Shown here piece by piece: positions 9,707 through 26,155 of a DNA stretch of 64,000 bases. The translations under genes were made by a program, and so were the position numbers. The notes beneath the pieces were generated by a model. The model was not told where the DNA came from. It saw nothing but the letters and a program-made list of their open reading frames with translations, and did not search any database. The DNA comes from Lentisphaerota bacterium (GTDB taxonomy: Bacteria; Verrucomicrobiota; Lentisphaeria; Victivallales; Victivallaceae). The stretch spans positions 30,023-94,022 of the forward strand of contig SUWE01000002.1 of assembly GCA_015061615.1 (NCBI GenBank), read 5' to 3'. The first letter of the stretch is position 1, and each line of letters begins with the position of its first letter.

Positions 9707-10363
9707 ATGGAGAAAGGCAGTTCTGTGATAAAAAAAGCATTTTTCGGCGGCAGTTTCGACCCGCCGCACACCGGGCATCTGGGAGTTGCCCGCGCGGCAC
9801 TGGATTCAGGGAAATGTGACGCGGTGGAGTGGTTCCCCGCCGCCGATCCCCCGCATAAGCAGAATCGCAAAAGGGCATCCTTTGCCGACCGCATGAATAT
9901 GGTAAGGTTGATGATCGCTGATGAAGCGCAAATGAGTGTTTCCGGCTTTGAGGCGGAAGCGGAACTGCACCCATCCTACACCTTCAACATACTTGCCGAA
10001 CTTGAAAAGCGCACCGGGATACGCTATATCCTTCTCATCGGCGCCGACAGTCTGCTTTCTCTGCACACATGGTACAACGCCCGTGAACTGGCAGAAAAGA
10101 CCGATTTCATCACCTATCCGCGTCCTGACTCTGAAGTGACGATGGAAAAACTGCTTCAGCACTGGGATGAAAAAATTGCAGAAAAACTGATGCAAAGTCT
10201 GATTTGCGGAACTTTTTTTGAAATATCTTCAACAGAAGTGAAAAATTCAATGGAAAAAAGAGCGTTCCGGCATCATATTATAGAGGAGCAGGGTTTGCAC
10301 CCCGCTGTAAGTGAATATATCCGCAAACGCGGTCTTTATCTTATTGGAAAGGAAAGTTTATGA
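9707..10363 (+). CDS. nadD: Nicotinate-nucleotide adenylyltransferase
   Basis: 218 aa. FFGGSFDPPHTGHL motif and ISSTEVK motif. Confidence 0.9.
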   Translation: MEKGSSVIKKAFFGGSFDPPHTGHLGVARAALDSGKCDAVEWFPAADPPHKQNRKRASFADRMNMVRLMIADEAQMSVSGFEAEAELHPSYTFNILAELEKRTGIRYILLIGADSLLSLHTWYNARELAEKTDFITYPRPDSEVTMEKLLQHWDEKIAEKLMQSLICGTFFEISSTEVKNSMEKRAFRHHIIEEQGLHPAVSEYIRKRGLYLIGKESL

Positions 10364-10716
10364 CTTCAGCTCAGAAAAGAATCGAAAAAGCTAAAGAACT
10401 GGCAGAATTCTGCATCAAATGTGCCGATGATAAAAAAGCCGAAGATATGGCGTTGATCAAATTGCCGGAAACTTCCGGTGTGGCAGATTATTTTGTCGTG
10501 GCAACAGCCAATTCCGACCCCCATTTACAGGCACTTGCCAATCACATCGAACGTCAGGTGCGGGAAAACTTTCAGGTCAGAGTCCTTTCCGGCGAAAACG
10601 GCGATCACGGCGGCTGGGTGCTGCTTGACTTCAACGATGTGATCGTCCATATCATGCTTCCGGAAATCCGGGAAAAATATCAGCTTGAAACCCTTTGGGG
10701 CGGAGCAAAAGCCTGA
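10360..10716 (+). CDS. rsfS: Ribosome silencing factor
   Basis: 118 aa. ADYFVVATANSDPHLQALANHI and GWVLLDFNDVIVHIM motifs. 4-nt overlap with nadD. Confidence 0.9.
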   Translation: MTSAQKRIEKAKELAEFCIKCADDKKAEDMALIKLPETSGVADYFVVATANSDPHLQALANHIERQVRENFQVRVLSGENGDHGGWVLLDFNDVIVHIMLPEIREKYQLETLWGGAKA

Positions 10717-10732
10717 TTTTACGGAGTTGTTC

Positions 10733-11347
10733 ATGATCGAATTGCCGCACTGGAGCGAAAATCAATGGAAAAATGAGATCCGTCAGCACGAGGCGGAAGT
10801 TGCCCTGTTCTTTCAGGATCTTGTCTACTGCCTTGATCTGCCGATGGATGATATCCCCGCCGCATTTCCAAACACGGCGGATACTCCGTCGGATCCGGTA
10901 ACTGCGGTGAAAAACGATGCTTTGCGGCAATGGATGCTCGATCATGAGGAGGATGGTGAGGAAGAGACTGAAACAGATTACGAACCGCGCCATCCGCTGT
11001 ATTTTTCCTGTGTGGATTCCCTTGACCAGCTTGCCGCAGAATGGAATATCGTTTCTGCCGGATTCAGCCGGGGGGAACTCTCCGGCATGGCATTGGGGAT
11101 AAGCTGTGCGTTTGCCAAACTTCTGGCGCGCAGTGCCGACTTTACAGAACCGGCAAAATACTGCACTGCCCAACTGCTCAGCACTCTCGGCAAACTTGCC
11201 CTGAACGATCTCGATGACCTGCTCAGCCGGCTGGATGATTTCGGCATTGCCCGAAACGGACAAACAGAAATTCCCCTGACCTACTTCCGCCGCCGTCTGG
11301 CTGTGGTAAAAGAGCAGCTGACCGGAAAACTCGATGAACTGAAGTGA
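10733..11347 (+). CDS. Hypothetical acidic protein
   Basis: ORF 10685-11347. ATG 10733 (MIELPHW) avoids overlap with rsfS. I recognise no motif. Confidence 0.45.
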   Translation: MIELPHWSENQWKNEIRQHEAEVALFFQDLVYCLDLPMDDIPAAFPNTADTPSDPVTAVKNDALRQWMLDHEEDGEEETETDYEPRHPLYFSCVDSLDQLAAEWNIVSAGFSRGELSGMALGISCAFAKLLARSADFTEPAKYCTAQLLSTLGKLALNDLDDLLSRLDDFGIARNGQTEIPLTYFRRRLAVVKEQLTGKLDELK

Positions 11348-11374
11348 TTTCAGTAACTTTTGAAATCGCCTGCT

Positions 11375-12283
11375 TCACTTGAAACAGATCCCGACCGTCC
11401 CCGCCAGACAGCAGAGCAGTGCGGAAATCTGCCATATTGAACGCTTTTCCCGCAGAAATATGATCGAATAGAGTTCAAAAACGATCAAACAGGAGCAAAC
11501 CATCAGCGGATAAGCGATCGCTCCGGCATTGGCTTTGGCAAGTGCATTCATCCCCGGATAGAGAAAGAGGAAGGAAAAGAGCAGATTGCTTCCTCCGCCG
11601 ATCAAAGCCATAACTCTGGCATCACCGCGTTTCAGCAGCTCCCCGCTGTGACGGAAAAGCTCAGGAATGTTGCCAAAACGGATAAGCAGACAGCCGAGAA
11701 AAAGTCCGAGGGAAAAAGCGGCAGTCCGCCACATGGGAGTGATCGCTTCCGCCTGAGCGTAATAAGAGGGAAGATTACTCAGACACTGGCTGACGCCGGT
11801 AGCAAAAAATGCCGCCAGTGCCCAGCCTTTCCACTTGCCGGAAACCCGGTTATCCCCGGATACGCCGAAGATCACCAATCCGGCAAGAATCAGCACAAAT
11901 CCGGCACTGCGGCACCATGAGAGCGGCACACAGAAAAGAACCGTCCCCATGGCAAAGGGGAAAACAAATCCCGATTGAGCCACAGTCCAGATGATTCCGT
12001 TGGGTCCGTTCTGCATGGCACGCGACATAAAATCCAGCTGAAAATAGTTTACGATACCGCAGGCAACCAACGATCCGGCTGCGATCATCCAGCCCGCAGC
12101 CGTTGCAGCGGGGATTCCCTGCAGCAAGGCAATAAGCAAACTGGCAAAAAACTCTATCAGTGTGCAGATCATCAGAAATCCGGTGACATCAAACTTGCGT
12201 TTGGGAGCTTCGCCCATCAGATAGCCGAAGATGCACCACCCCGCCCCGACAACGAGCATTGCCAATATCCCGAACAAAAACAT
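11375..12283 (-). CDS. DMT-superfamily (EamA-like) 10-TM membrane transporter
   Basis: The ORF is uniformly hydrophobic with about 10 predicted helices. ATG 12283 has GGGGGAAGG 8 nt upstream; the ORF-track start is TTG. Substrate unknown. Confidence 0.5.
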   Translation of the reverse strand: MFLFGILAMLVVGAGWCIFGYLMGEAPKRKFDVTGFLMICTLIEFFASLLIALLQGIPAATAAGWMIAAGSLVACGIVNYFQLDFMSRAMQNGPNGIIWTVAQSGFVFPFAMGTVLFCVPLSWCRSAGFVLILAGLVIFGVSGDNRVSGKWKGWALAAFFATGVSQCLSNLPSYYAQAEAITPMWRTAAFSLGLFLGCLLIRFGNIPELFRHSGELLKRGDARVMALIGGGSNLLFSFLFLYPGMNALAKANAGAIAYPLMVCSCLIVFELYSIIFLREKRSIWQISALLCCLAGTVGICFK

Positions 12284-12307
12284 AGCAAACCTTCCCCCCT
12301 GCGGCAA

Positions 12308-13675
12308 TTACAACAGAGAATCCTCCTTGACCACACCCGGCACGCGGTAGTCGGTCTCTTCAAAACTCCGTTTGTTGCAGGCAAGCACAGCTCTGACCAG
12401 AGTCGGTATCGGCAAAGTGGTAACGATCGAAAGAATGATGATCGCGTTGAAGAAGTTTTCTCCGAGCAATCCCATATCCTTACCGATAGCCGCCGCCGCA
12501 AGGGTGGCAGAAAGCTGCGGAACAGTCATCAACCCTGCGGCAACCCCCTGCGGATTGTTGAATCCGCAAAGTCTCATTGCGGTAAATCCGGAAATCATCT
12601 TGCTGGCGACCAGACCGATGACCGTCAGAACAACGATCAGCCAGCTGCCGGAATCTTTGAATGCCGCGAAGTCGGTTTTCATACCGATGGAAACAAAGAG
12701 GAAGGGGATAAGAAATCCGTAACCGATACTTTCCACACGTTTGAACAGCAGCATATCCCGCTGTTTGACGACCTGAGAAAGCCCCAATCCGGCGATGAAC
12801 GCTCCGACAACGAGGTTGATACCGAGCAGTTCACCGACAATGACAGTGGTCAAAATAACCAGCAGAACAAAGGTTATAAGCACATCTTCGCCCGGATGGA
12901 AATATTTGAGAAGGAACTTTCCGGAAAAATAAACCGCCGCCATCGAAACAACCAGATAGAGCAGAACAACGAGCAAAAACACGGGAACAAAACTGTTTCC
13001 GAAAAAACTGCTGCTGACATGATCGAAAATCGAAAGCGTACTGTTGACGACCGAGTGGGATATATGAAGCGACTGACGGTGCAGCTGTACACTCACCGCC
13101 AGAAGCACGATACTGGCGATATCGGTAATGACCGTGGAAATCAGCACTGCCGCACCGAAACGGGTCTTGCTCAGCTTCAAATCGCGCATCACGGGGAAAA
13201 CGATACCGACGGAGTGAGACGCAAACAGCGAAGCGTAAAGCAGTTTTCCGGCAAGATCGGTCGGCTTGAAGTACCAGTAGACCCAATATCCGGCGATTGC
13301 CGGAATAAGGAAGGTGAAAATACTCAGAAGAATGACCGGCTTGCGGACAGATTTTATCAAATCGAAATCAGCTTCCATTCCGGCAAGCGCCATCAGAAGC
13401 ATCAAACCGAGGGAACCGAGAGAGTTGATTATAACATTGAAACTTTCTGTTGTCTGAACGGCGGTCTGCACCTCCTGCCCCGGAGGTCCGAGAAAACTCA
13501 GTGCCTTTGAAATGATACCGACAAGGTCGACACCGACCCCGGTGGGACCGATAAGCATTCCGACGATCAAAAGAGAAATCACAGTGGGAATTTGAAACTT
13601 GCGCAATACAAAAGGGATAAGACTCATCAATCCCGTAAATGCAAGAAATAATATCAGGAAGGCACCATCACTCAT
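12308..13675 (-). CDS. Cation:proton antiporter (Na+/H+ exchanger family, CPA-type)
   Basis: About 12 TM helices and a typical Na_H_exchanger layout. ATG 13675 (MSDGAF) has AAGGAG 8 nt upstream. Confidence 0.75.
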   Translation of the reverse strand: MSDGAFLILFLAFTGLMSLIPFVLRKFQIPTVISLLIVGMLIGPTGVGVDLVGIISKALSFLGPPGQEVQTAVQTTESFNVIINSLGSLGLMLLMALAGMEADFDLIKSVRKPVILLSIFTFLIPAIAGYWVYWYFKPTDLAGKLLYASLFASHSVGIVFPVMRDLKLSKTRFGAAVLISTVITDIASIVLLAVSVQLHRQSLHISHSVVNSTLSIFDHVSSSFFGNSFVPVFLLVVLLYLVVSMAAVYFSGKFLLKYFHPGEDVLITFVLLVILTTVIVGELLGINLVVGAFIAGLGLSQVVKQRDMLLFKRVESIGYGFLIPFLFVSIGMKTDFAAFKDSGSWLIVVLTVIGLVASKMISGFTAMRLCGFNNPQGVAAGLMTVPQLSATLAAAAIGKDMGLLGENFFNAIIILSIVTTLPIPTLVRAVLACNKRSFEETDYRVPGVVKEDSLL

Positions 13676-13903
13676 ACGCAAAACTCCTTTCATTTTTGCT
13701 GCCGCATACTGCGGTTTATTTGATAAAAAAATCTTAAATTACAATTAATATAGGACCTCCTTAATAAAAAGTCAACCCTGCAAGCTGAAAAAATCCGATA
13801 ATTCAGCGGCGGAATATCAATAATGATTGTTTTTCCTCATATTCCGGTGTATATTATAGGGATGTTATTTAATACCAAACTTCAGAAGAAAGTACCTTTG
13901 CCA

Positions 13904-15652
13904 ATGAACGAACTTCCGGAATTCCGCGCCCTCGGTGTAGCTGATGAGCTTATCCCTGCCCTGCTCGCCAAAAATTTTGTTTCCCCCAGTGCAATTCAGA
14001 CCCTCACCATTCCGGCACTGCTTTCCGGAGAAAAAGATCTTATCGGCCAGGCGTTGACCGGTACCGGAAAGACCGCCGCCTTCGGTCTGCCGGTGATCCA
14101 GACGATTTCACAGAGCAAGGTTCCGCAGGCATTGATTCTTGCTCCGACAAGAGAATTATCCATACAGATCGCCGATGAGCTGAACTCACTTGCAAAAGAT
14201 AAGCCGCTGCGCATCATCCCGTTTTTCGGCGGACAGCTCATAACAATACAGCTTGACGCGCTCAAAAACGGCGTTGATATCGCCGTCGGAACTCCGGGCA
14301 GGATCATGGATCTGCACAGACGCGGCAAACTTCAGCTGGATAAATTGCAGTTCGCCATCCTCGATGAAGCGGACGAAATGCTGGATATGGGATTTATCGA
14401 CGATATCCGTGAAATCCTTTCGCTCACCAATCCTGATAAACGCATGCTGATGTTCAGCGCCACCATGCCGCAGGAAATTCTTGATGTGGCGGCGGAGTTT
14501 ATGCGTCCGGGATATGAGATCGCCCGTGCCGGATGCGAAAATGCGACCAATACCGCATTGACCGAACAGTATTTCCACGAAGTGAAACGGGAACATAAAC
14601 TTGATGCGCTGATGAGATTGATCGATGCCAATCCCGAACTTTACGCAATGGTATTCTGCCGGACACGGGCGGATGTGGATGAAGTGACAGAAAAACTCCA
14701 CGCCAAAGGCTACCGCACTGAAGCGTTGCACGGAGAAATTTCCCAGGCACAGCGCCTGCGGGTGATAAACGGTTTCAAAAAACGCAAATTCCCGCTGCTC
14801 ATAGCTACTGACGTTGCCGCACGCGGAATAGATGTCAATGATCTTACCCATGTGATAAACTACTCCCTGCCGCAAAATTCAGAAATATATATCCACCGTA
14901 TCGGCAGAACCGGCAGAGCCGGACGTCACGGTGTGGCAATATCCTTTGTCACCCCCGGTGAAAGGCGGAAACTCAAATTTATCGAACAGGATATCGGCAA
15001 TACGATCCCGCAGAAAAAACTTCCGGAAATCGCTGATATAATCGAAGCCAAAAAACAGCTCTTTTCCGAAAATATCGCCCTTCTGCTTGAAACCGGCGAT
15101 GCCTCTGACTATCTCAACTTTGCTGAAGAACTCTGCACTCTCGGCGGACACCCGGCGGAAGCGATGGCGGCGGTGTTGAAAATGTACTTCAAAAATGAAC
15201 TTCTTCCGGAAAGTTACCACGAGTTCGGCGCCAAAGTCAAACGTGACGAGTCGCACATGAAAAAACTGCTCCTCTTTGCCGGACGCGGCGACGGAATCAC
15301 GGTACCGATGATCCTTCAGGAAATCTGCGAAAAAACCGGCATCCGCGGCAATCAGCTGGGCAAAATCATCTGCCGCGCAAACAAGACCTTTGTAAATGCC
15401 GAACCTGCCGATGCGGAAAAAATCATCAAAGCCTTTGCCGACAATGACCAATGGCGCTTCAAATATGATGAGCCGCGCGAAGAACGTTCCGGCAGACGCG
15501 GCAAAAAGGAGTTCAACACCAGAGATGAGCGCCCCGGCAGACGGGATAAAAACGACTCTGCTGTGCGCGAAGAAAAACCGAAACGTAAAAAGGTAAAAAC
15601 CCATAAACCTTTGAGAGAAGAATTTTTCAAGTGGATCGAAGAATCAGAATAA
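13904..15652 (+). CDS. DEAD-box ATP-dependent RNA helicase (DeaD/CsdA-like) with a basic C-terminal tail
   Basis: Contains the Q-motif context, ALTGTGKTAAF, DEAD (ILDEADEML), SAT and HRIGRTGRAG. ATG 13904 (MNELPEF) is chosen over the upstream in-frame starts. Confidence 0.9.
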   Translation: MNELPEFRALGVADELIPALLAKNFVSPSAIQTLTIPALLSGEKDLIGQALTGTGKTAAFGLPVIQTISQSKVPQALILAPTRELSIQIADELNSLAKDKPLRIIPFFGGQLITIQLDALKNGVDIAVGTPGRIMDLHRRGKLQLDKLQFAILDEADEMLDMGFIDDIREILSLTNPDKRMLMFSATMPQEILDVAAEFMRPGYEIARAGCENATNTALTEQYFHEVKREHKLDALMRLIDANPELYAMVFCRTRADVDEVTEKLHAKGYRTEALHGEISQAQRLRVINGFKKRKFPLLIATDVAARGIDVNDLTHVINYSLPQNSEIYIHRIGRTGRAGRHGVAISFVTPGERRKLKFIEQDIGNTIPQKKLPEIADIIEAKKQLFSENIALLLETGDASDYLNFAEELCTLGGHPAEAMAAVLKMYFKNELLPESYHEFGAKVKRDESHMKKLLLFAGRGDGITVPMILQEICEKTGIRGNQLGKIICRANKTFVNAEPADAEKIIKAFADNDQWRFKYDEPREERSGRRGKKEFNTRDERPGRRDKNDSAVREEKPKRKKVKTHKPLREEFFKWIEESE

Positions 15653-15740
15653 AAAATTCTGATAAAAATCAGCTTCAAGCATTGAAAAATCAAAAATCTT
15701 GCGTTATGTTAAGATTGTAAAACTGCTCAAGGAGGTTTTT

Positions 15741-17261
15741 ATGAAAAATCGTTTTTGTTTATCATTCGCGGCGGCACTGACACTCATCAGTACACTGTCT
15801 GCCGCACCTTCATCCGATGCTGTAAAGTTCCGGGAGACGGTCAGCAAGGTGGATATGGATGGAGAAATGCTCTGCTACCAGAATACAAAGGGCATTCAGA
15901 AACTTTTGACCGGATTCATTCCGCAACTGCTGAAGCATACGTTGAAAGATAATCCGATGGCGCCGACGCTGATACAGGGGTGGGATTCGTTCTGTCAGCT
16001 CATCAATCCCGGAGCATTTGAAGCATTTGCCGTCAGTTCCAGAGAGATCAGCAGCGATCTTTATATCGCCAAAGGTTTCATCCTTCTTGACCGGCAGAAA
16101 AAAAGTATTCTTTTTGAACAGAAGGTGGAAAATACCACGCTTGACTGGCAGAAATTTCCGGCGGATACCATCGCCGCAGTAAAAGGCAGAATAAATCTCA
16201 AACACACTTGGGATTCGATTCTGGAACAGTTGAAAAATTCCCCGGATAAAGGGGGACAATCTCTGCTTATGCAGATCGAAATGCTGAAACAGGCGGGAGT
16301 CGATATCGGCGGTACAATTTCCGGTATCGACGGCGAACTTGAATTGATCGTTGCCGGAACTTCTGCTGAAGATCTGGCGGTAAAATTCGTGATTCCGGAT
16401 AAGTCCGGGGTTCTTTCTGCGCTCCTCATTCCGCTGATTCAGGATTTGCCTCTTCCTTCGGAAGGTTTACAGCTGAAAAATGCGATCGTTCCCGGTAAAA
16501 TAGTTTTTTATACTGACAAGCGTCTTCTTGAACCTGCAAAAAACACTCTCGGCAGTTCCGCAACATTCAAAAAATTTGCCGCTCACCTGCCTGAAAAGGG
16601 AAATCTCACTGTTGCGCTCAACGTTTCCGGAAAGTTGCTGGAGCAGATCAAAAAAGCCAATGCCGCTGATAATCCGGAGCTTTCAGAGTTTTGCACTCTG
16701 CTCGAACCGTTTGCCCTGCTTGGCATACAATCCTCTGAAGCAAACGGGGAAAAAGCTGTTATTGCATCAAATTTCTCAATTTCCCAGGTTCAGCAGATTT
16801 CTTCACTGCTTATGCCTGCGGCAATGAAACTGATTCCGGCACTTGATTCTGCCAGAGAAAAATCCAAACTCAATCAGTGCATGAACGGGATGAAACAATT
16901 TGCTCTTGCCTGCCACTTATTTGCTGACGGAGCAAATGACACTCTGCCGGACTCCGTTGACAAATTTATCGAACAGCGGCTGCTGCGTACTGAAATTTCC
17001 GCAAACATAATCTATCTTGCTCCCGGTATAAAATTGTCGGAGATCACCATTCCGGCTCAATATCCGCTGGCGATCTGTGACCGATTCAATCACAAAAGCG
17101 GCAAAGTCTGCATCGCATTTGCCGACGGTCATGTAGAAACACTTGATGTTCCGGCAGATGCCGATGAAGAAGATATTGTGGAAATTCTCGGAAAAATGTA
17201 CAAATATCCGCAACCGGTGCTTGATGCACTGAAAAAAGCGGTTTCAGAGGAAGAGAAATGA
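15741..17261 (+). CDS. Secreted protein with a C-terminal DUF1559-like H-X9-DG domain
   Basis: ATG 15741 follows GGAGG. Signal peptide is MKNRFCLSFAAALTLISTLSAAPS. The C-terminus has AREKSKLNQCMNGMKQFALACHLFADG and NHKSGKVCIAFADGHVETL (H-X9-DG). Confidence 0.6.
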   Translation: MKNRFCLSFAAALTLISTLSAAPSSDAVKFRETVSKVDMDGEMLCYQNTKGIQKLLTGFIPQLLKHTLKDNPMAPTLIQGWDSFCQLINPGAFEAFAVSSREISSDLYIAKGFILLDRQKKSILFEQKVENTTLDWQKFPADTIAAVKGRINLKHTWDSILEQLKNSPDKGGQSLLMQIEMLKQAGVDIGGTISGIDGELELIVAGTSAEDLAVKFVIPDKSGVLSALLIPLIQDLPLPSEGLQLKNAIVPGKIVFYTDKRLLEPAKNTLGSSATFKKFAAHLPEKGNLTVALNVSGKLLEQIKKANAADNPELSEFCTLLEPFALLGIQSSEANGEKAVIASNFSISQVQQISSLLMPAAMKLIPALDSAREKSKLNQCMNGMKQFALACHLFADGANDTLPDSVDKFIEQRLLRTEISANIIYLAPGIKLSEITIPAQYPLAICDRFNHKSGKVCIAFADGHVETLDVPADADEEDIVEILGKMYKYPQPVLDALKKAVSEEEK

Positions 17262-17838: not shown

Positions 17839-17874
17839 CGGAACGGGGCAGAAAACTCCGTTCCGTTTTTTTTT
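17839..17874 (+). terminator. Rho-independent terminator
   Basis: CGGAACGG (17839-17846) pairs with CCGTTCCG (17858-17865). A T9 run follows at 17866-17874. Confidence 0.75.
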
Positions 17875-17888
17875 ACGGGGGGGGAAGT

Positions 17889-19370
17889 ATGCTGATAACT
17901 GAAGTCCGGCTGTACGGCATCGGCAATTTTGCAGAAGAAACGGTCATTGAACTTGCCCCGGAAACATTTTTCTGCGGCAGTGCCGATGCAAGAAAAACTT
18001 TCCGCAGAGCAATGGAACTTCTTTTCGGCAACACCTCCCCTGCTCCGCAGGATTTTTCTGCAACAGAAATGCGAATATCTGCGAAACTGACTTTTCCGGA
18101 AACTGATTCAGCGGAGATCCCGGAGTTTTTCCATCACATGCGGGCAGAGGATGATGGAGAAATATGTGCCGTGCTGGAATTATCTGCGAAAGCTGCCGAT
18201 GGTGAAATTGAAACTCAGCACAGTTGGCTTCTGCCGCACGATATCAGACGTCAGGTAAAATCCGATGAAGCGCCCGCGGTAAAATTCATCCGCATTGCCC
18301 CGGACGGAATGACTTTGAAAGAGGCATTTTTGCGGATAATTCCGGATATACTGCTGATGGATGAAAAGATCGAACTTCCCGCGTTTCCTGAAATAGCATC
18401 TCTCATTGAAAGCGCCAAACACTTGCCGGCTGATTGTACAAAGTGGCTGCTGGACGGAATCGGAATGATTGCAGAACCGGAACAGATGCCGGCACTGTTG
18501 CGGGAACTGCTCACCATACGGCAGAATACCCCCAACGCCTCAAACCTTCTGCTTTATATCGAAGATATGCCGGATTTTACCATTGAGGCAAATAAGACAG
18601 AAATCATTTATTCCTCAGCACAACTTCCGGCAAAAGATTTTCAAACCGGCCAAATCCGCTGTTTCACCGGAAATTCTGTTCATTCAATAAAGCTCCCGGC
18701 AAATACGGTTGACAAAATTTGCGTTGCCGGAGGAATCAAAAACTTTCCGGAACTGTTGACTGCGGCAATGGTGATTTTTACGGTTTCTGCTGATGACAAA
18801 ATCATTCTGGAAAAATTTCTCAAACTCTCCGGCATTGATCTGTCAGACAGAAACATTGCCATTGTTCCACTGTCAGGCAGACAAGTACATCTGTACTGGC
18901 AAATCCTCGATCAACTCGATACGCCTTATTTTACACTTGCCGATTTGCAGCATGGGAAATCCGGCGGTGATTGGGCGGCGATCGCCGGATATCTGCACAG
19001 TTGTGCATATTGCAACAGAGAACTGCCGGTTATTGAAGGTCAAAATACAGCAGTTGATATTGAAGAAGTTGCAAAAGATATTCCCGATCTGAAAAATGAA
19101 AACGTCTGGATGCATTGGCTCAGGGAAAATCAGAATATCTTCTTTGCCGCTCCGTATGATTTGAATCATCTGATGTTCCACTCGTTCCGTCAGGAATACG
19201 GCGGGATGTTCCCGGAATATTCAGAAAATGATGAGGAGTTTTACCATCAGCTTTGTTCCCGGCGGGATTTCAGCAGAATATACTCTGAAATATTCAGCAT
19301 TTTAAGTGATGATGAATTGAAAAGAAGAATGCCGGATATGATCCGTTTGCTTATTTATCAGATAAAATGA
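17889..19370 (+). CDS. OLD-family-like protein: ABC/AAA-type ATPase N-terminus plus a Toprim-like region, with non-canonical motifs
   Basis: The N-terminus MLITEVRLYGIGNFAEETVIELAPETFFCGSADARKTFRRAMELLFG has the layout of OLD/ABC ATPase N-termini, with GSADARKT in the Walker A position. LLLYIEDMPDF sits in the Walker B position. Residues 293-352 (MVIFTVSADDKIILEKF...IAIVPLSG...TPYFTLADLQ) follow a Toprim strand pattern. Confidence 0.5.
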   Translation: MLITEVRLYGIGNFAEETVIELAPETFFCGSADARKTFRRAMELLFGNTSPAPQDFSATEMRISAKLTFPETDSAEIPEFFHHMRAEDDGEICAVLELSAKAADGEIETQHSWLLPHDIRRQVKSDEAPAVKFIRIAPDGMTLKEAFLRIIPDILLMDEKIELPAFPEIASLIESAKHLPADCTKWLLDGIGMIAEPEQMPALLRELLTIRQNTPNASNLLLYIEDMPDFTIEANKTEIIYSSAQLPAKDFQTGQIRCFTGNSVHSIKLPANTVDKICVAGGIKNFPELLTAAMVIFTVSADDKIILEKFLKLSGIDLSDRNIAIVPLSGRQVHLYWQILDQLDTPYFTLADLQHGKSGGDWAAIAGYLHSCAYCNRELPVIEGQNTAVDIEEVAKDIPDLKNENVWMHWLRENQNIFFAAPYDLNHLMFHSFRQEYGGMFPEYSENDEEFYHQLCSRRDFSRIYSEIFSILSDDELKRRMPDMIRLLIYQIK

Positions 19371-21196
19371 ACCGTTCCATCAGCAACCGCTCACTGCGCG
19401 GCATTGATGAGTTTGAAAAAGCCGCCGTCACGGCGATAAAAACAAGTGACCGCAATTTACTTATCCACTCCGGGCCGGGGAGCGGAAAAACGGAACTTCT
19501 CGCCCGGAAAGCGGCTTATCTGCTTGAAAACGATGCGCTGCCCGCCAATAAGAAAATTCTTGCTCTGAGTTTCAAACGCAACAGTGTCCGCAATTTGCGC
19601 GACAGGGTAAACAGCTGTATTCCTCCTGAAACCAGTCACCGTTTTGAAGCGTATACCTTTGATGCCTTTGCCAAAATCCTGCTTGACCGTTTCGGAAATC
19701 TGCTCTCTGAACCGTGGCAGCTTGCCAACGGTTACACCATTGATGAAGAGTTGCTCTCCATGCCGAAACTGCGGGATGAACTTTATGCCGCCGCATCTGA
19801 TACCGCTTATTCAACTGCGGAAATCGAAAGCCTTGAATTGTATGGATTCTGCCGCAATCATCTGGTGCCAAAGCCGTTGCCGGCAGAAATAAATTTTTCC
19901 GGCGACTTGTCTCTTGATGCCGGAATGCTTATGTGGCAATACTGGCTGAACCGGAAACCGGCGACACTTATATTCCCGATGCTCAATGCGCTTGCAGAAC
20001 TTCTGCTCCGGACAAACAGGAACTTGAAGAAAATTTTACAGACCACTTACGGTTATATCTTTCTGGATGAGTTTCAGGATACGACCTTTGATCAATACCG
20101 GCTGTTGAAAAGCGCCTTTGACAACAGCGGCATCCCCGTTATTGCCGCCGGAGACGAAAAACAAAGCATCATGCTGTGGGCTGATGCAATGCCGGACGCA
20201 ATGGAACTTTTTATCAATGACTTCGATGCAAAAGAGATAAATCTGCAATGGAATTTCCGTTCCGCGCCGCCTCTGGTCGAACTTCAGAATGTTGTGGCAC
20301 GCAAACTTCTGCTGGATACTCTGCCGGAAGCAATTCCGGTAAAAAGTGATCTTGACGGCAAATGCCGCGCTCTTTACTTTTCTTCAGAAATTGAAGAAAA
20401 CCGTTTTATTATCAATGAGATATCGACCTTGCTTTCAAACGGATATTCGCCGCGTGATATCTGCATTTGTGTGCGGCACGACTCCGCCGCCTGCGCTCAG
20501 GTATTGAATCACTCTGCGGCAAACGGCTCATTGTATTTCCGCGATGAAGTTCCGGTACAGAATCTGCTGGATGAAAACGTTGTAAAACTGCTCTTTGCTT
20601 TATGGGAGGTGATTTTTACCGGCCGCGCCCCGGACTCGTGGGATAAAATCACCGGATTTACCGATGTTGACAGGCTGATAAATTTCAAAAGCGAAATAAA
20701 ATCGCTTTTTGCCAAAACGGAGTTCAGCAAAGAGAGATTTGAAGATTTGATAAACCGGAGCATCGCTTTTCTCGGAGAAAATAAAATCCGCGCCGCATTT
20801 GAAGAATACCTGCATGGTCAATGGCTCAGCAGTTGTCTTGAAGAGCTGGCGGCGGCGGCGGACAGGCAGAGTTTTTCAAATCCGGATTTTTATGATGCCC
20901 TGTTATCCATCAAAGGCGACACCGCCATTCCCGTATTGAGTGTGCAGCGGTGCAAAGTAAAAGAGTTCAGAACGGTATTTTTTGTTGGTCTGGAAGATAA
21001 CAGTTTCCGGGAGTTTCAACTTGATCTGCTTGAAGAAGGGTGTGCATTTTTCATTGCCCTGTCACGCGCTCAGGAGCAACTGTATTTTACCGCCTGCCGT
21101 TCCCGTAACGGTAATCCGCAGAAATTTGATGAGATCAGACCGCTTTACCGTCTGCTTTCAGGGTGCGGCGTGGAATTGGAAGAAATCAGGGAATAG
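19367..21196 (+). CDS. UvrD/PcrA/Rep-like SF1 helicase
   Basis: HSGPGSGKT (motif I), IFLDEFQDTT (motif II), AAGDEKQSIMLWADA (motif III), NFRSAPP (motif IV), and a diverged motif VI region FRTVFFVGLED...ALSRAQEQLYFT. ATGA overlap with the upstream gene. Confidence 0.8.
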   Translation: MNRSISNRSLRGIDEFEKAAVTAIKTSDRNLLIHSGPGSGKTELLARKAAYLLENDALPANKKILALSFKRNSVRNLRDRVNSCIPPETSHRFEAYTFDAFAKILLDRFGNLLSEPWQLANGYTIDEELLSMPKLRDELYAAASDTAYSTAEIESLELYGFCRNHLVPKPLPAEINFSGDLSLDAGMLMWQYWLNRKPATLIFPMLNALAELLLRTNRNLKKILQTTYGYIFLDEFQDTTFDQYRLLKSAFDNSGIPVIAAGDEKQSIMLWADAMPDAMELFINDFDAKEINLQWNFRSAPPLVELQNVVARKLLLDTLPEAIPVKSDLDGKCRALYFSSEIEENRFIINEISTLLSNGYSPRDICICVRHDSAACAQVLNHSAANGSLYFRDEVPVQNLLDENVVKLLFALWEVIFTGRAPDSWDKITGFTDVDRLINFKSEIKSLFAKTEFSKERFEDLINRSIAFLGENKIRAAFEEYLHGQWLSSCLEELAAAADRQSFSNPDFYDALLSIKGDTAIPVLSVQRCKVKEFRTVFFVGLEDNSFREFQLDLLEEGCAFFIALSRAQEQLYFTACRSRNGNPQKFDEIRPLYRLLSGCGVELEEIRE

Positions 21197-21295: not shown

Positions 21296-22825
21296 TCAAA
21301 ATCCAGGATACCGGTTCCACCACCGTTCTGTAACATGCCCGTCTTCGCCGGTTTCGATTTTCTGATGCAGATCATCTGCGACTTGACTGACGATTTCGTA
21401 TTCACGCAGATTTCGGCACCACTTTTCAGGGATACCGTTTTCGCCGTTAAGCACTCCGAGGATATTTCCGGCTATGGAGCCGGTAGAATCACTGTCACCG
21501 GAGATATTCACCGCTTCCAGAACCCCTGCCCTGAAATCCCATGTATGGTGCAAAGCACAATATATTCCAATGGCAAGAGCTTCTTCGGCCACCCAGCCTT
21601 CACCAAGTTCAGAAACTGAAGTTGCCATACGGCTGTGACGGATAGCGGCAAGCGTTTCTGCTGACTCAGGGAATTTTTCAAGATAAGCTTCAACCAAATC
21701 CAATGCCGTATTCAGACTTTTCCCCAGATACAGATAGGAAATAAGCATGGCAAAGGCTCCGCCGGAAGTGATTCCGGTGGGATGTCCGTGGGTGATCGCC
21801 GAAAATTCACACCCATATTCATAAGCCGTTTCCGGTGAAAAATACAACCCCGCAGGAGCCATGCGCATAACCGTTCCGCAGCCTTTGCTGTTATTTTTTG
21901 CCGTTTCACCGACCGGAGTTTCCTGCAATGCTGAAATACAGGTCATACCGGGGGCGCGGCGGGAGAAAAGCTGTTTTTCTTTTATCAGCCAGCCGCTGTT
22001 CAAAGCCTCATCCCACGCCTTGACACATGTCGCTTGAGTTTTCAGCCAGCGCAAATAAGCATAATGAAGGACGCCGCGCGCTCCGCAAATTCCCTTTTCG
22101 CGGGAGCGGACCGCTCCGCGCAAAATTCCTTCTGCGGTAAACAGTGCCATCTGGGTATCATCAGTTATCGAACCGGTACCGTCACCAAACTCGACATAGT
22201 CATCCACCGCATCGCCGAAAATTGATTCTATATCTCTGACACGGAGAAATTCCACCGGAGCCCCCAGAGCGTCACCAACGGCGCCGCCAAGCATACACCC
22301 CCGGATCATCCGGCGCGAAGCAACCGGCTTCAACTGCTCATCAATAGCTTCCCACGCTTCAAGAGCGTTTTGAGCAGCAGCGTCACCGGATAATTTTTTC
22401 AGCGCGTCAACAAGAGTGTCTGACTGATGCAGATAACGGAATGCGTACAACGCTCCATTCAACTGCACAAAATCCTTTGTATTGCAGATGCGGTCGGCGG
22501 TTTTGACCAGAATCACGTCGCGCACACCGCTGCCGGCGATGTGATTCAAATAAGATTCTTTGTCACACCCGCCATCGTGAGTAAGCTGTTTTATACAGGA
22601 AAGGACTCTTTCATTTGATGCCGCGATGATTTCATTTTCCGTCACAGCAGTATCTTCAAGCAGGTCATGTCCCCATGCCGCCATAACAGCAGTTGAACTT
22701 TCATCTTCACCCCATTGTTGAAGTGTTTCAGCCACCATCTGCGGGTGAACTATATAAGGGATTTTACTCTCATCATTGCTTTTGCGGAACTGTCCGGCAT
22801 GATATTTTTCGGCAAGGTGTTTCAC
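21296..22825 (-). CDS. Fusion protein: SpoT/Mesh1-like HD (p)ppGpp-hydrolase-type domain plus ADP-ribosylglycohydrolase (DraG/ARH) domain
   Basis: The N-terminus is AEKYHAGQFRKSNDESKIPYIVHPQMVAETL...AAWGHDLLEDTAVTENEI (HD_4-type). From about residue 170 it reads RGCMLGGAVGDALGAPVEF ... TDDTQMALFT ... ISGDSDSTGSIAGNILG (ARH family). Confidence 0.75.
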   Translation of the reverse strand: MKHLAEKYHAGQFRKSNDESKIPYIVHPQMVAETLQQWGEDESSTAVMAAWGHDLLEDTAVTENEIIAASNERVLSCIKQLTHDGGCDKESYLNHIAGSGVRDVILVKTADRICNTKDFVQLNGALYAFRYLHQSDTLVDALKKLSGDAAAQNALEAWEAIDEQLKPVASRRMIRGCMLGGAVGDALGAPVEFLRVRDIESIFGDAVDDYVEFGDGTGSITDDTQMALFTAEGILRGAVRSREKGICGARGVLHYAYLRWLKTQATCVKAWDEALNSGWLIKEKQLFSRRAPGMTCISALQETPVGETAKNNSKGCGTVMRMAPAGLYFSPETAYEYGCEFSAITHGHPTGITSGGAFAMLISYLYLGKSLNTALDLVEAYLEKFPESAETLAAIRHSRMATSVSELGEGWVAEEALAIGIYCALHHTWDFRAGVLEAVNISGDSDSTGSIAGNILGVLNGENGIPEKWCRNLREYEIVSQVADDLHQKIETGEDGHVTERWWNRYPGF

Positions 22826-22874
22826 AGGGATGCTCCTTTCGGGTTATTACACTGCATAATATACCGTTGTAAGA

Positions 22875-22895
22875 TGGACATCTAATGTCCGACAT
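22875..22895. promoter_or_regulatory. Operator-like motif TGGACA-N4-ATGTCCGACAT, copy 1
   Basis: TGGACATCTAATGTCCGACAT. It lies 4 nt past the WYL-gene stop and 50 nt upstream of the HD-ARH start. It contains inverted GGACA/TGTCC arms with a 5-nt spacer. Confidence 0.45.
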
Positions 22896-22898
22896 TGT

Positions 22899-23906
22899 TT
22901 ATCTGCCGGAATTTTCCAGAATTTTATTGGCAATCCGCACCATATAAAGCTGAAGTTCAGCCGGAGCATGCACCGCAGCATTTCCGCATGCAGACAATGC
23001 GATTTGTGCCGCTTCATATTCGGTAATATTCTGCAAGCGGATAATGACAGAATTTTCCCTGCGTTCTTTAATAACTTCCGGAGCGGAAGCGTAACGTTCA
23101 CAAATTCCTTTATCAAACGGGGCAAAAAATTCTATTACGGCCTCCGGCAGTTTCTCAAAATCAAACAAACCGTTCTCTTTCACTTGTTTGAGGATTTCCG
23201 GATCCGGGTCAAAGGTGGTTCCGGTCATCTCCGCACTCTCAATACGGTGGATGGCAAGAGTCAATTTTTTTGGCGGATCGCAAAGTTCCCCGTCAACCCG
23301 GTTTTGTTTACCGCGCAGATACCAGCTGCCGCCTTTGTGGATAAAAAGGTGAGGTTCAAAATATTTAACAGATACACGCTTGCTTGAAGCATAGGTCAGC
23401 TTCAAATCCCGGTGCTGTTCCCAGGCGTTGTAGCAGGTAAGAAAAATTTCCGGATCAGAGTGCGGAAGATATTCAGAGTTGATGACCTGAAAATTTTCCA
23501 GTTCAACTCCCTGAGCCATTCCGTTTTCATTTTTCATTATCAATGCTGCCACCGCACGGTTCATTTCTCCGCGCAAGGGGTCGGGCAGAAAACCACTGGC
23601 GATGCGTTCGCCGAGCAAAGCGGCTTTCATTTCAAACGGTTCCACCATAAGATCTTCGTTGTACCAGTCGGTGTTGGAAAGGTAATACCCCTTACGGGAT
23701 TCATCGTAATGGACGGGCGCCCCGTATTCATCACGGAGATCGGCGATATCCCGCTGAAATGTTTTACCGGAAGTTTTCTTGTATGCTCCGGCAATATCAA
23801 GTTTTTCCATCTCTTTCAAAAAACGCGGATAATTCGGATAGCGGTTCTGGCGCATCATCTTGACGATAGTTTGTATTCTGCGGATCTGATTTTTATTTGC
23901 CGGCAT
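22899..23906 (-). CDS. WYL-domain transcriptional regulator (HTH + WYL + C-terminal domain; BrxR/CapW/PafBC-like architecture)
   Basis: 335 aa. The N-terminal wHTH is RIQTIVKMMRQNRYPNYPRFLKEMEKL...TFQRDIADLRDEYGAPVHYDESRKGYYL. It has a literal GGSWYLRG motif. Confidence 0.8.
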   Translation of the reverse strand: MPANKNQIRRIQTIVKMMRQNRYPNYPRFLKEMEKLDIAGAYKKTSGKTFQRDIADLRDEYGAPVHYDESRKGYYLSNTDWYNEDLMVEPFEMKAALLGERIASGFLPDPLRGEMNRAVAALIMKNENGMAQGVELENFQVINSEYLPHSDPEIFLTCYNAWEQHRDLKLTYASSKRVSVKYFEPHLFIHKGGSWYLRGKQNRVDGELCDPPKKLTLAIHRIESAEMTGTTFDPDPEILKQVKENGLFDFEKLPEAVIEFFAPFDKGICERYASAPEVIKERRENSVIIRLQNITEYEAAQIALSACGNAAVHAPAELQLYMVRIANKILENSGR

Positions 23907-23981
23907 AAATATATCCCCATATATATAAAAAGTATCACCTCTCTATAAAATATCATGATTTTTTTGAAAATCAAGAGAAGG

Positions 23982-24002
23982 TGGACAAAAGATGTCCGAC
24001 AT
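23982..24002. promoter_or_regulatory. Operator-like motif TGGACA-N4-ATGTCCGACAT, copy 2
   Basis: TGGACAAAAGATGTCCGACAT. It sits in the divergent promoter region, 76 nt upstream of the WYL start and 121 nt upstream of the ankyrin-operon ATG. 17 of 21 positions match copy 1. Confidence 0.45.
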
Positions 24003-24122
24003 GTACCACTATATTAAACGCTGTAACAACAACACGGCAGTTTTGATGCAATGGAGATAAAAACCGGGTGGTCCAATCATAAATTCCATCGGAAATGCCA
24101 CCAAGCCAAAGGAGAAAAAATC

Positions 24123-24743
24123 ATGAACGAAAAAGATGCTTTGAAAAAATTCCATGAATGCAGTGCGAACAATGACTTAGACGGAGCATGCGAAGCACTG
24201 AAACACATTTCCGCCGAAACAATAAATTTTCAGAATGATGACGACTATGATATGCTGATACAGGCAACTGTTGACGGCAATACCTGCGCCGTGGAGGCAT
24301 TGCTGAATGACGGCAGATGCGACCTGACACATGAGGAAAATCTCTGCGGCATGACCGCTTATGAGTTTTCAAAAGATTACGCACCGGACAGCCGTATCCG
24401 CCAATTATTTCAGCTGAAAAAATACCGGAAAATCTCTCTTTTCAATTTCTTTATTGCGATTCAGAAAAATGATACAGAAGCAGTAACCGCTCATCTTGCG
24501 ACAGGCAAACACCCTGCCCTGAATAAAAATGTATTTTACAGCATGCCTCCGGGCTTCCTGATTGAACTGCCGCTGGCAACAGCAGTAAAGAAAGATTGCG
24601 CGGAAATGGTAAAAATCCTGCTTGAACATGGTGCTTTGCCTGATGCACACTGCCGCAAAAATGAAAAAACTCCGCAACAGCTCGCGGAAACACACCCTGA
24701 AATATTGAAGTTATTCCTTGAAACAAAGGCGGATATGCAATGA
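24123..24743 (+). CDS. Ankyrin-repeat protein
   Basis: ATG 24123 follows AAAGGAG. ANK-type repeats include DMLIQATVDGNTCAVEALLNDGRCDL and LPLATAVKKDCAEMVKILLEHGALPD. Confidence 0.7.
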   Translation: MNEKDALKKFHECSANNDLDGACEALKHISAETINFQNDDDYDMLIQATVDGNTCAVEALLNDGRCDLTHEENLCGMTAYEFSKDYAPDSRIRQLFQLKKYRKISLFNFFIAIQKNDTEAVTAHLATGKHPALNKNVFYSMPPGFLIELPLATAVKKDCAEMVKILLEHGALPDAHCRKNEKTPQQLAETHPEILKLFLETKADMQ

Positions 24744-25342
24744 ATATACGCCCCGAAAATAATCTGGAATCGGCGATCTGCGAAAAAGATACTGAAAAAC
24801 TTCTCATCGCAGTTGCTGAAGAAGAAGCTATGTTCCGCCTTGCTTACGCAGGCGGACTTGATGAAAATTTTTCCGAAGAAGTTATTTTTGCCGTGCTGCT
24901 GGTTGCAACACCCAAAAAACTGCTTGAATCAATGAATACTGCTCAATTCAGACATTATCACAATCCCGGTGAGAGATTGCAGAAATTGACAGCCCATGCG
25001 CTTGCTCCTTTGCCGGAAAATCCCACCACCGGAGAAAGCGCCCTGATAAAGGCGATCGTCAACAGCGATGACACTGAGATATCAAGACTTATTCTTGAAG
25101 AAGGGGTCAAATTCAACGGCTTTGCCCCGGAACTTCTGCTGTGGCTGCCGACCTTTTCCGCTGATACCCTTATCACATTTTTGAAAGATGGTCTTTCTGC
25201 GAAACTCAAGGCAATCGTACTGGGAATTTTACTCAAAGAGGTGGAAAACCCAAATCTTTTTCAAAAATTCTCTTATCAGGAAAGAGTCCGTTTTGCCAAC
25301 ATCATGCTGCAAATAATGATGAAACACGATATGGAGGGATGA
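24740..25342 (+). CDS. Hypothetical alpha-helical protein with a weak ankyrin-like repeat
   Basis: 200 aa. 4-nt overlap with the upstream gene. ESALIKAIVNSDDTEISRLILEEGVKFN resembles an ANK repeat. Confidence 0.5.
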   Translation: MNIRPENNLESAICEKDTEKLLIAVAEEEAMFRLAYAGGLDENFSEEVIFAVLLVATPKKLLESMNTAQFRHYHNPGERLQKLTAHALAPLPENPTTGESALIKAIVNSDDTEISRLILEEGVKFNGFAPELLLWLPTFSADTLITFLKDGLSAKLKAIVLGILLKEVENPNLFQKFSYQERVRFANIMLQIMMKHDMEG

Positions 25343-25345
25343 TTT

Positions 25346-26155
25346 ATGAACGACAATGCACAACAGCTTGTAAAAGAATTTATTGCCGAAAAGCTCAACG
25401 GCGATCTGTATGCGCTTGAAAGTTTTGATTTCAAGACCTTGCGTGACTCGGCAAAATACGGTACTCCCGACCGCAGCTTTGATTGCGATGACACGAATAT
25501 CATGCGGGCAGTCTATGTGGTATTATGGGGGGATTCACTGCCTTACCTGAGCTTGCACGATATCGGCAGCGGAAAAAATTACCGTGGTGATACGATGAAT
25601 ACATTTCATACCATGTTCGGCAGAGAGATTCCGGAAAAACCGGGATTTTTTGCCGGTTTGGAAAAATACTCACCATCTGATGAAATGCGGGAAAAAGTCC
25701 GTAACTTCGGCAGACTCTGCTCAAATATCGGCAACTTTTGCATTCTGCCCAACCGGAACTGCCGCCGGACAACGTTGAATTGTTACCGCGGAACAAATCA
25801 ATGGCGGGATTTTTTCGACCGCTTTCTGATTGAACTCCACCGGGTTCTTGACAATGCAGACGCTCAGGATGATACCCTGAAAGAACTGGTGGCAAAAAAC
25901 GATTTCTGTTTCAGCAAATTCAAAGGTACTGCCGGTTTTGCCGGATTGAGAAAAATCCTGCTGTTCGACGATTATCTTGATCCGGAATCAGAACTGCCGC
26001 AGGAAATATTCCCGTTGAATTATCACTGGAAAAATATTGAAAAGCGTGAACAATATCTGCTTGATGCTGAAAAATATCTTGCAGAAAGTGAAAGAATCAT
26101 CCTTCACCGCGCTGATATGATGATACGGATATTGGCAGAAAAACTCGCCGTCTGA
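25346..26155 (+). CDS. Hypothetical protein, family not recognised
   Basis: 269 aa. It starts 4 nt after the previous stop. Conserved-looking blocks are GDTMNTFHTMFG, NIGNFCILPN and WRDFFDRFL. I cannot assign any known domain. Confidence 0.5.
   Translation: MNDNAQQLVKEFIAEKLNGDLYALESFDFKTLRDSAKYGTPDRSFDCDDTNIMRAVYVVLWGDSLPYLSLHDIGSGKNYRGDTMNTFHTMFGREIPEKPGFFAGLEKYSPSDEMREKVRNFGRLCSNIGNFCILPNRNCRRTTLNCYRGTNQWRDFFDRFLIELHRVLDNADAQDDTLKELVAKNDFCFSKFKGTAGFAGLRKILLFDDYLDPESELPQEIFPLNYHWKNIEKREQYLLDAEKYLAESERIILHRADMMIRILAEKLAV

Follow-up and report, generated by a model that had tools for sequence, protein, structure and literature searches.

Gabija systems and a related gene pair in Lentisphaerota

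The Gabija system of Bacillus cereus VD045 (structures 8SM3, 8X5I and 8JQB) consists of an OLD-family gene (gajA) that is immediately upstream of a UvrD-like gene (gajB). Gabija and class 2 OLD systems are defined by this type of gene pair (PMC10568477), and two further defining features are a conserved ATP-binding site and the class 2 set of Toprim catalytic residues. A gene pair with the same gene order is found in a stretch of 64,000 nucleotides from contig SUWE01000002.1 of a Lentisphaerota bacterium (the window, W). Gene 1 codes for a GajA-type protein in which both features were looked for and neither was found. Gene 2 codes for a GajB-type helicase. With moderate confidence, we propose that this is a Gabija-derived module, in which the gene 1 protein would be a non-catalytic adaptor and the gene 2 protein the only enzyme.

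The effector of Gabija is debated. It may be nicking by GajA, or it may be the depletion of (d)ATP and (d)GTP driven by GajB, with GajA being a sensor that supplies DNA ends. In B. cereus GajA (BcGajA), each of the mutations E379A, D511A and K541A abolishes cleavage (PMC8136825). Defense is abolished by each of K35A, H320A, E379A, D511A and K541A and by deletion of the ATPase domain (preprint 10.1101/2023.05.02.539174). According to the same preprint, BcGajA-E379A retains non-specific DNA binding that is not inhibited by ATP, and BcGajB is a (d)A/(d)GTPase with DNA 3' ends as activators, which in principle need not originate from GajA. On the side of GajA, the interface with GajB is formed by residues K94 and R97 in the alpha4-beta5 loop; with either K94E or R97A, the complex falls apart and defense is lost (PMC10781630). 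The position of the dimerization insert in GajA and TsOLD is described in the same study. For BpOLD, residues E400, D457 and K562 are described as completely invariant among class 2 OLD proteins (PMC6755086), and the role of the class 2 catalytic lysine is covered in PMC8136825 and PMC6755086.

Gene 1 as a short homolog of GajA

The list of open reading frames (ORFs) contains exactly two ORFs in this region, which are on the same strand and overlap by ATGA (Table 1). The sequence at the junction is ...AAAATGAAC. An earlier note on this DNA had quoted several peptides. Of these, MLITEVRLYGIGNF, FFCGSADARKTF and AMELLFG are all found in the gene 1 product, and GPGSGKT, DEFQDTT, GDEKQSI and NFRS are all found in the gene 2 product. 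The pair recurs in relatives at 42-98% identity. The compared relative loci are referred to by handles (L001, L003, L010, L061 etc.); L013 is from the same genome as L001.

The only Pfam match of gene 1 above the gathering score is PF20469 (OLD-like_TOPRIM; residues 302-353, E-value 8.7e-8), which confirms a Toprim-patterned region noticed earlier at residues 293-352. There is no AAA domain, unlike in the nearest canonical partner, which carries AAA_15/AAA_21/AAA_23. PADLOC models for GajA match gene 1, the best being PDLC00090 (2e-41), essentially via residues 263-450. No NCBIfam model was found for gene 1, and a single-sequence search against PDB sequences gave no match, so that profiles were required. 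Combined in a profile, gene 1 and related sequences give an end-to-end alignment with B. cereus GajA as well as with the C-terminal regions of class 2 OLD proteins. The AlphaFold2 model (mean predicted local distance difference test score, pLDDT, 88.7; predicted template modeling score, pTM, 0.82) was searched with Foldseek. The best matches are TsOLD (6e-17) and GajA (8x5i/8sm3, about 2e-16), with a range to 3e-16. Further fold matches are retron-Eco8 OLD, the heads of SMC/RecF/Rad50 and the Toprim regions of class 2 OLD proteins. Based on the end-to-end profile alignment and these fold matches, the homology of gene 1 to OLD/GajA proteins is considered genuine and extends over the whole protein. 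The earlier note had allowed that gene 1 might be related neither to ABC ATPases nor to Toprim proteins, which is contradicted by both the profile and the structure searches. By gene order, profiles and predicted fold, the pair belongs to the Gabija/class 2 OLD lineage, as had been supposed.

The nearest canonical relatives belong to a subfamily (L006/P0133; PDLC00090/PDLC00103) with which the pair has the clade-specific motifs IPELF and GGDW in common. Unlike gene 1, the GajA from L006 (652 aa) is complete in its ATPase and Toprim motifs, and two blocks of it can be aligned with gene 1. The first covers residues 1-136 of gene 1 (L006 residues 1-163; 37% identity, E-value 5.6e-20 by blastp), the second residues 263-444 (35% identity, E-value 7e-33). 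Between the blocks, L006 GajA has about 214 residues with SISDGMKS, IEEPEN and TSHSP, where gene 1 has 126 unrelated residues. This short architecture is rare, with only about seven clusters among 1.84 billion representatives. The other approximately 300 matches of gene 1 are canonical proteins of 640-700 aa, which align through the Toprim half only. B. cereus GajA is more distant (about 13% identity), and gene 1 is 85 aa shorter. The sizes of the two proteins had initially been considered inverted with respect to typical GajA and GajB. This holds for gene 1, which is abnormally short for a GajA, but not for gene 2 (see below).

Loss of ATPase and nuclease residues

Motif states were determined from a 50-sequence alignment with 10 reduced and 40 canonical proteins. 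In gene 1, Walker A is degenerate (GSADARKT, compared to the canonical GxNGxGK[ST]), the Gly that precedes the Lys being replaced by Arg. The Lys/Thr positions are unconserved among orthologs, which have RNT, RKS, RKN, RRS or VNA. The PARRDP motif and the ABC signature (LSDGQ) are absent from gene 1 and from the reduced clade. GK[ST], PARRDP and LSDGQ have been lost in all 10 reduced proteins. A first MAFFT alignment suggested that nothing was left of Walker B or the H-loop. This was rejected, as a deeper alignment shows remnants of both (LLLYIED and IIYSS). The H-loop His is replaced by Y241. Thus, from the proposal that gene 1 is an OLD-like ATPase/Toprim protein, the OLD/GajA homology is retained, but the protein is not predicted to be ATPase-competent.

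The Toprim catalytic set, which in class 2 comprises Bp E400, E404, D455, D457, T506/E508 and K562 (Bc E379, D511 and K541), is affected in a similar way. The Toprim Glu (Bc E379/Bp E400) corresponds to V299, and the second Asp of the DxD motif (Bp D457) to Q354. The Lys of the otherwise invariant [SG]KP motif (Bc K541/Bp K562), which was equated with the class 2 catalytic Lys by its invariance and position rather than by direct alignment, corresponds to D460, and this position is D, N or E in all reduced relatives. The Toprim Glu and the [SG]KP Lys are missing from all 10 reduced proteins, as is GK[ST] of Walker A. Other acidic residues have been kept: Bp E404 corresponds to D303, Bp D455 to D352, and both Bc D511 and the metal-B acid of the class 2 OLD nucleases to D424. 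Residues D302/D303, D352, D361 and D424 are conserved within the clade.

The ATP-binding and nuclease residues that are required in B. cereus GajA are gone, and to judge from this, the canonical Gabija mechanism (a nucleotide-gated Toprim nickase) cannot operate here. It is very unlikely that the pair represents a canonical, fully active Gabija system, with gene 1 being a divergent but working nucleotide-sensing Toprim nuclease. The homology to GajA and GajB, the gene order and the OLD-like fold would fit such a system, and the conserved acidic residues could in principle form an alternative metal site. Yet the reduced proteins without exception lack the residues listed above, matching single mutations abolish cleavage and/or defense in BcGajA, and the ABC signature as well as the segment after Walker B are physically deleted. 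A tblastn search of the window for another intact GajA or OLD gene, which might act in trans, gave no such gene. Since the conserved ATP-binding site and the class 2 catalytic set are missing, the pair should be described as Gabija-derived rather than as a working Gabija.

Searching the literature for GajA proteins that are inactive or pseudoenzymes retrieved no such description. A precedent for a purely structural Toprim fold is provided by the CWB2 modules of Clostridioides difficile Cwp6 and Cwp8 (cited in PMC6755086), the context of which is unrelated to that of the pair.

Retained features and the helicase partner

The best-conserved element of the N-terminal region is the sequence IPEFFHHMRAE, which is invariant in the close clade and recognizable in all canonical relatives. 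Profile alignments place it on L89-A100 of B. cereus GajA, with H82 aligned to K94 and R85 to R97, the two residues that contact GajB. Four helices are predicted at the position of the dimerization insert of GajA and TsOLD; within the protein, constraint is weakest in this part. The Toprim-like region has a helical insert of the class 2 type, with helices (361-415) between strands 347-352 and 417-420 in the AlphaFold2 model. In this respect it resembles BpOLD and XccOLD (6NK8, 6NJV; TM-scores of 0.60-0.66 when normalized to the target), from which it differs by the replacement of the three absolutely conserved residues. Gene 1 is unlike the stand-alone class 1 OLD proteins (P2 Old/TsOLD type) in having an overlapping helicase partner and the helical insert in the Toprim domain.

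Gene 2 had been described as a clear superfamily 1 (SF1) UvrD-type helicase, and this is fully supported. Pfam assigns PF00580 (UvrD N-terminal, 6e-30) and PF13361 (UvrD C-terminal, 5.6e-13). Like the Toprim match of gene 1, these are well outside what chance would produce. The PADLOC GajB model PDLC00103 matches at 1e-150, with residues 11-603 aligned to profile positions 12-607 of 612. At the level of profile hits, PADLOC models thus detect both genes, contrary to the expectation that standard defense models may miss the pair. The top matches among PDB sequences are PcrA, UvrD and Rep. An assignment as PcrA, UvrD, Rep, HelD or RecB was rejected, as gene 2 is far below all NCBIfam equivalog cut-offs. 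The protein is longer than B. cereus GajB (494 aa). More than 1000 relatives from many phyla have 605-640 aa, and together with the length of the model this shows that 609 aa is normal for a large GajB subfamily. The NTPase motifs, which are shared with B. cereus GajB, have been kept: motif I (GPGSGKT, 36-42), motif II (DEFQDT, 234-239), motif III (GDEKQS, 262-267), motif IV (NFRS, 296-299) and motif VI (LSRAQ, 565-569). Motifs I-IV and VI are intact in all seven helicases that were compared.

Selection on the gene pair

Across closely related hosts, the neighboring DEAD helicase and flavin reductase are 90-96% and 93-99% identical, respectively. In the same comparison, identity is only 44-65% for gene 1 and 67-73% for gene 2. 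As the catalytic losses are common to all these orthologs, they must have diverged after the loss. Among W, L010, L001 and L003, the synonymous divergence (dS) is about 1-2. For this post-loss period, the ratio of nonsynonymous to synonymous divergence (dN/dS, omega) of gene 1 is 0.17-0.26 (bootstrap confidence interval (CI) 0.11-0.36), and neutrality is rejected (P<1e-13). A recent ortholog pair has an omega of 0.34 for gene 1 (P=0.009). For gene 2, omega is 0.11-0.15. At least six orthologs have no frameshifts or stops. Gene 1 has been under purifying selection since the catalytic loss, yet it evolves far faster than its neighbors.

Could the pair be a slowly decaying relic? A Gabija system would have been inactivated, for example to escape self-toxicity, and would be drifting toward loss, the intact ORFs reflecting weak or residual constraint. 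We consider this rather unlikely. It would be in line with the simultaneous loss of the ATP-binding and nuclease residues, each of which is needed for defense in B. cereus, and with the very high speed at which gene 1 evolves. A terminator directly precedes the start codon of gene 1 and leaves no space for a promoter, the pair is missing from most sister species, and its relatives form a graded series, from a reduced partner to a 159-aa stub (L008) to a degenerate partner with a split helicase (L065). For the closest ortholog pair, which differs by 15 substitutions, omega of gene 1 is 0.56 with a CI of 0.18-1.96, which spans 1, is indistinguishable from neutrality and is uninformative. Decay is nevertheless difficult to reconcile with the low omega over the long post-loss divergence, with the intact reading frames and the conserved ATGA coupling, and with the dead Toprim region being the most constrained part of the protein. 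The helicase is constrained as well (omega 0.11-0.15) and has intact NTPase motifs. Members of the reduced clade have kept their length and architecture while diverging to as little as 28% identity (L011 type).

Distribution and relatives of the pair

All gene 1 orthologs (42-98% identity) occupy the same chromosomal slot, with conserved ATGA overlap. The gene order is Na/H exchanger, DEAD/DbpA helicase, DUF1559-like gene and flavin reductase, followed by the pair. The hosts are metagenome-assembled genomes from Victivallaceae/Lentisphaeria, several of them from ruminant gut or feces according to isolate names. To check sister species, 14 species-representative loci with the same backbone were recovered, and among these only L013 carries the pair. 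It is missing from at least eight sister species that share the backbone and have at least 6 kb of downstream sequence. The pair is accessory and is vertically inherited in one sub-lineage. A core housekeeping pair of the family is ruled out by the absence from sister species, and the same absence speaks against a conserved syntenic housekeeping pair across the phylum, an option raised in the earlier note. A defense hotspot downstream of the flavin reductase was also considered but is not supported: the sister species have various metabolic genes at this position and no recognizable defense genes, and PADLOC gave only one weak hit there.

The helicase and its adaptor may have been recruited as a host module for a cellular DNA transaction (repair, replication restart or end processing), with no role in defense. 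Such a domestication is unlikely in our view. No integrase, transposase, tRNA or other defense genes adjoin the pair, the GC content of which equals that of its surroundings, and it is inherited vertically in a fixed slot. The L011- and L008-type relatives are found among pta/ackA, mraZ or glycogen genes. Archaeal Cran1 is a precedent for an OLD-family protein that is not involved in defense (PMC12796447), but it is no true parallel because its active-site residues are all present and it has retained both activities. One would expect a housekeeping function to be maintained more broadly than is the case for a pair that at least eight sister species lack, and dN of gene 1 is 7-50 times that of the neighboring housekeeping genes.

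More distant relatives differ in the state of the GajA-type partner. L006 (same type as P0133) codes for a 652-aa canonical GajA and a 621-aa GajB, the latter 46% identical to gene 2. In L011, near pta/ackA and mraZ, the helicase is 55% identical to gene 2, and its partner is a reduced protein of 493 aa with 28% identity to gene 1. In L008 and L009, among glycogen genes and represented by 18 contigs, the helicase (37% identity) has a 159-aa stub as partner. The stub matches the N-terminus of L006 GajA at 3e-21 and retains the docking loop. In L065 and L066, the partner is a more degenerate protein of 469 aa (P0134), and the UvrD-like gene is split into 404 and 197 aa. In a neighbor-joining (NJ) tree, computed without support values, the helicases with reduced partners form one clade, with the L008 helicase as sister and the canonical L006 helicase as outgroup, which argues for a single origin of the reduced state.

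The context of these relatives varies. In L006 (1619-10552), the canonical pair is flanked by NurA and an N6/N4 DNA methyltransferase and, on the opposite side, by RuvB and a phage-type integrase. Unlike the context in W, such surroundings resemble a mobile or defense island. In L008 (7529-9851; also in L009), from a Lentisphaerae lineage, the stub overlaps the start of an intact GajB-type helicase. In L065 (4207-8193; also in L066), the pair adjoins an Imm-NTF2-2 immunity-type protein and a 2363-aa Peptidase_C10/HemolysinCabind protein, which is a polymorphic-toxin-like context.

Proposed function

If gene 1 is a non-catalytic adaptor, the module might work as follows. Both proteins would be made together via the conserved ATGA coupling. 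The gene 1 protein would self-associate through its retained helical insert and would hold GajB through the FFHHMR loop, the putative equivalent of the B. cereus K94/R97 docking loop. Its Toprim-like scaffold would bind DNA but would neither cut it nor respond to nucleotide levels, since the P-loop, the ABC signature, the Toprim Glu, the second Asp of DxD and the catalytic Lys are gone. GajB would then act on DNA 3' ends from other sources, such as phage replication or damage, either as a translocase or as an effector that burns (d)ATP and (d)GTP. Such an adaptor is plausible because BcGajA-E379A still binds DNA and because BcGajB is activated by 3' ends. The analysis shows the homology, the motif losses, the kept docking loop, the intact helicase motifs, the purifying selection after the loss and the lineage-restricted, accessory distribution; that a complex forms, that DNA is bound but not cut, what triggers the system and what it does for the cell are inferred. 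As to the role, our guess is a residual or altered function in defense or conflict rather than housekeeping, based on the fast evolution and the patchy presence.

Several points weigh against an adaptor with GajB as the only enzyme. Complex formation and DNA binding are predicted by alignment to a protein of only about 13% identity. Motif V of the gene 2 helicase has diverged (QRCKVKEF, compared to HKSKGLEF). Three acidic ligands (D303, D352 and D424) survive in gene 1, and BpOLD tolerates single ligand substitutions and keeps nicking with one metal site (PMC6755086), so that the gene 1 protein may have some residual one-metal nicking activity. The elevated dN of gene 1 and the closest-pair omega belong here as well, as does the NJ tree with its missing support values. 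The split helicase of L065/L066 and the stub of L008 fit ongoing decay, and together with the absence of mobile or defense neighbors, the stub and split forms would point to domestication or decay.

It is tempting to speculate that the pair is the first natural separation-of-function Gabija, in which a selected pseudoenzyme GajA is an oligomeric DNA-binding adaptor and GajB the sole effector, but we propose this only tentatively and regard it as somewhat less than an even chance. If it holds, the series from a canonical pair to a dead GajA and further to a 159-aa docking stub in Lentisphaerota would trace the stepwise host capture of a defense helicase. With respect to the debated effector, the clade would be a ready-made natural mutant, which lacks both GajA activities but in which purifying selection has maintained the GajA protein, its docking loop and an intact GajB. 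Protection by the pair would mean that GajB and a scaffold suffice. Should the pair no longer protect, the clade documents the disarming and partial retention of a widespread defense system. Annotation based on hidden Markov models (HMMs) labels the pair as Gabija, even though the canonical mechanism is predicted to be inoperative. Gabija counts may therefore include non-canonical or inactive members.

Features of the locus and its surroundings

Table 1. Sequence features of the gene pair and of the region directly upstream (positions refer to the window; residues to gene 1)
Feature	Position	Strand	Remarks
Terminator-like hairpin	17839..17875	+	10-bp stem (7 G-C pairs) and T9 run; ends upstream flavin-reductase gene
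G8 tract/GGAAG ribosome-binding region of gene 1	17878..17888	+	Length varies among near-identical relatives
Gene 1	17889..19370	+	493 aa, ATG; GajA/class 2 OLD-derived, degenerate ATPase and Toprim active sites (predicted pseudoenzyme)
N-terminal lobe of ABC-ATPase fold, residues 1-136	17889..18296	+	37% identity to canonical GajA; SMC/RecF/Rad50 fold matches
Degenerate Walker A, G30-SADAR-K36-T37	17976..17999	+	Gly before Lys is Arg
Docking-type loop IPEFFHHMRAE, I77-E87	18117..18149	+	Aligns with B. cereus GajA K94-R97 loop
Four predicted helices at GajA/TsOLD dimerization-insert position, residues 140-212	18306..18524	+	AlphaFold2 secondary structure; omega 0.18-0.41
Walker B strand remnant LLLYIED, residues 220-226	18546..18566	+	Canonical hhhhEEPEN; next ~30 canonical aa lost
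Toprim-like domain with helical insert, residues 263-450	18675..19238	+	PF20469, PADLOC GajA; most constrained, catalytically degenerate; omega 0.11-0.26
SRRDF, residues 457-461	19257..19271	+	Aligned with invariant [SG]KP motif; Lys is D460
ATGA overlap of gene 1 stop and gene 2 start (translational coupling)	19367..19370	+	Kept in W, L061, L010, L001 and L003
Gene 2	19367..21196	+	609 aa, ATG; GajB-type SF1A UvrD-like helicase/NTPase

Only about 13 nt separate the terminator-like hairpin from the start codon of gene 1. This leaves no room for a promoter, so that the pair may depend on read-through. The position of the hairpin is conserved in W, L061 and L010, and both arms of the stem carry changes. 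In L001 and L003, the spacer ahead of the pair is longer (138-147 nt).

The homopolymers upstream of the gene 1 ATG (17866-17888) are T9 and G8 in W but T8 and G6 in L061-L063, the protein of which is 98% identical. L010 and L002 have a plain AGGAGG at the same ribosome-binding site. The differences in length of the G tract could reflect slippage-based tuning of expression, given that this is the ribosome-binding region, or an assembly error.

Between the DEAD helicase and the flavin reductase, a DUF1559/prepilin-type gene (15699-17261) matches gene 1 in its rate of evolution, with 52-63% identity compared to 90-99% for its neighbors and an omega of 0.15-0.25.

Downstream of the pair is a variable block (21296-26155). 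It codes for a 509-aa fusion of an HD_4-like N-terminus with ADP-ribosylglycohydrolase and a WYL/WCX regulator (both on the minus strand), an ankyrin-repeat protein, a 200-aa ORF that gave no hits and a DUF6994 protein. Both W and L010 have this block behind the pair; in L061, where the sequence ends at this point, at least the ADP-ribosylglycohydrolase gene can be seen. One or two large AIDA/FG-GAP-like genes, missing in W, are located between the helicase and the ADP-ribosylglycohydrolase gene in L010 (11912-15084) and L061 (9510-12635). A link between the pair and a WYL-regulated module next to it, as suggested in the earlier note, was rejected: this is a separate block, which is missing in L001 and L003 even though these keep the pair, and the AIDA/FG-GAP-like genes intervene in L010 and L061. 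From the block, the ADP-ribosylglycohydrolase and WYL genes were scanned with PADLOC, and of these two only the WYL protein gave matches.

Further upstream, the AT skew is unusually high at 10001-16000 (0.14-0.21 in 2-kb windows), a region that spans the Na/H exchanger and DEAD-box helicase genes.

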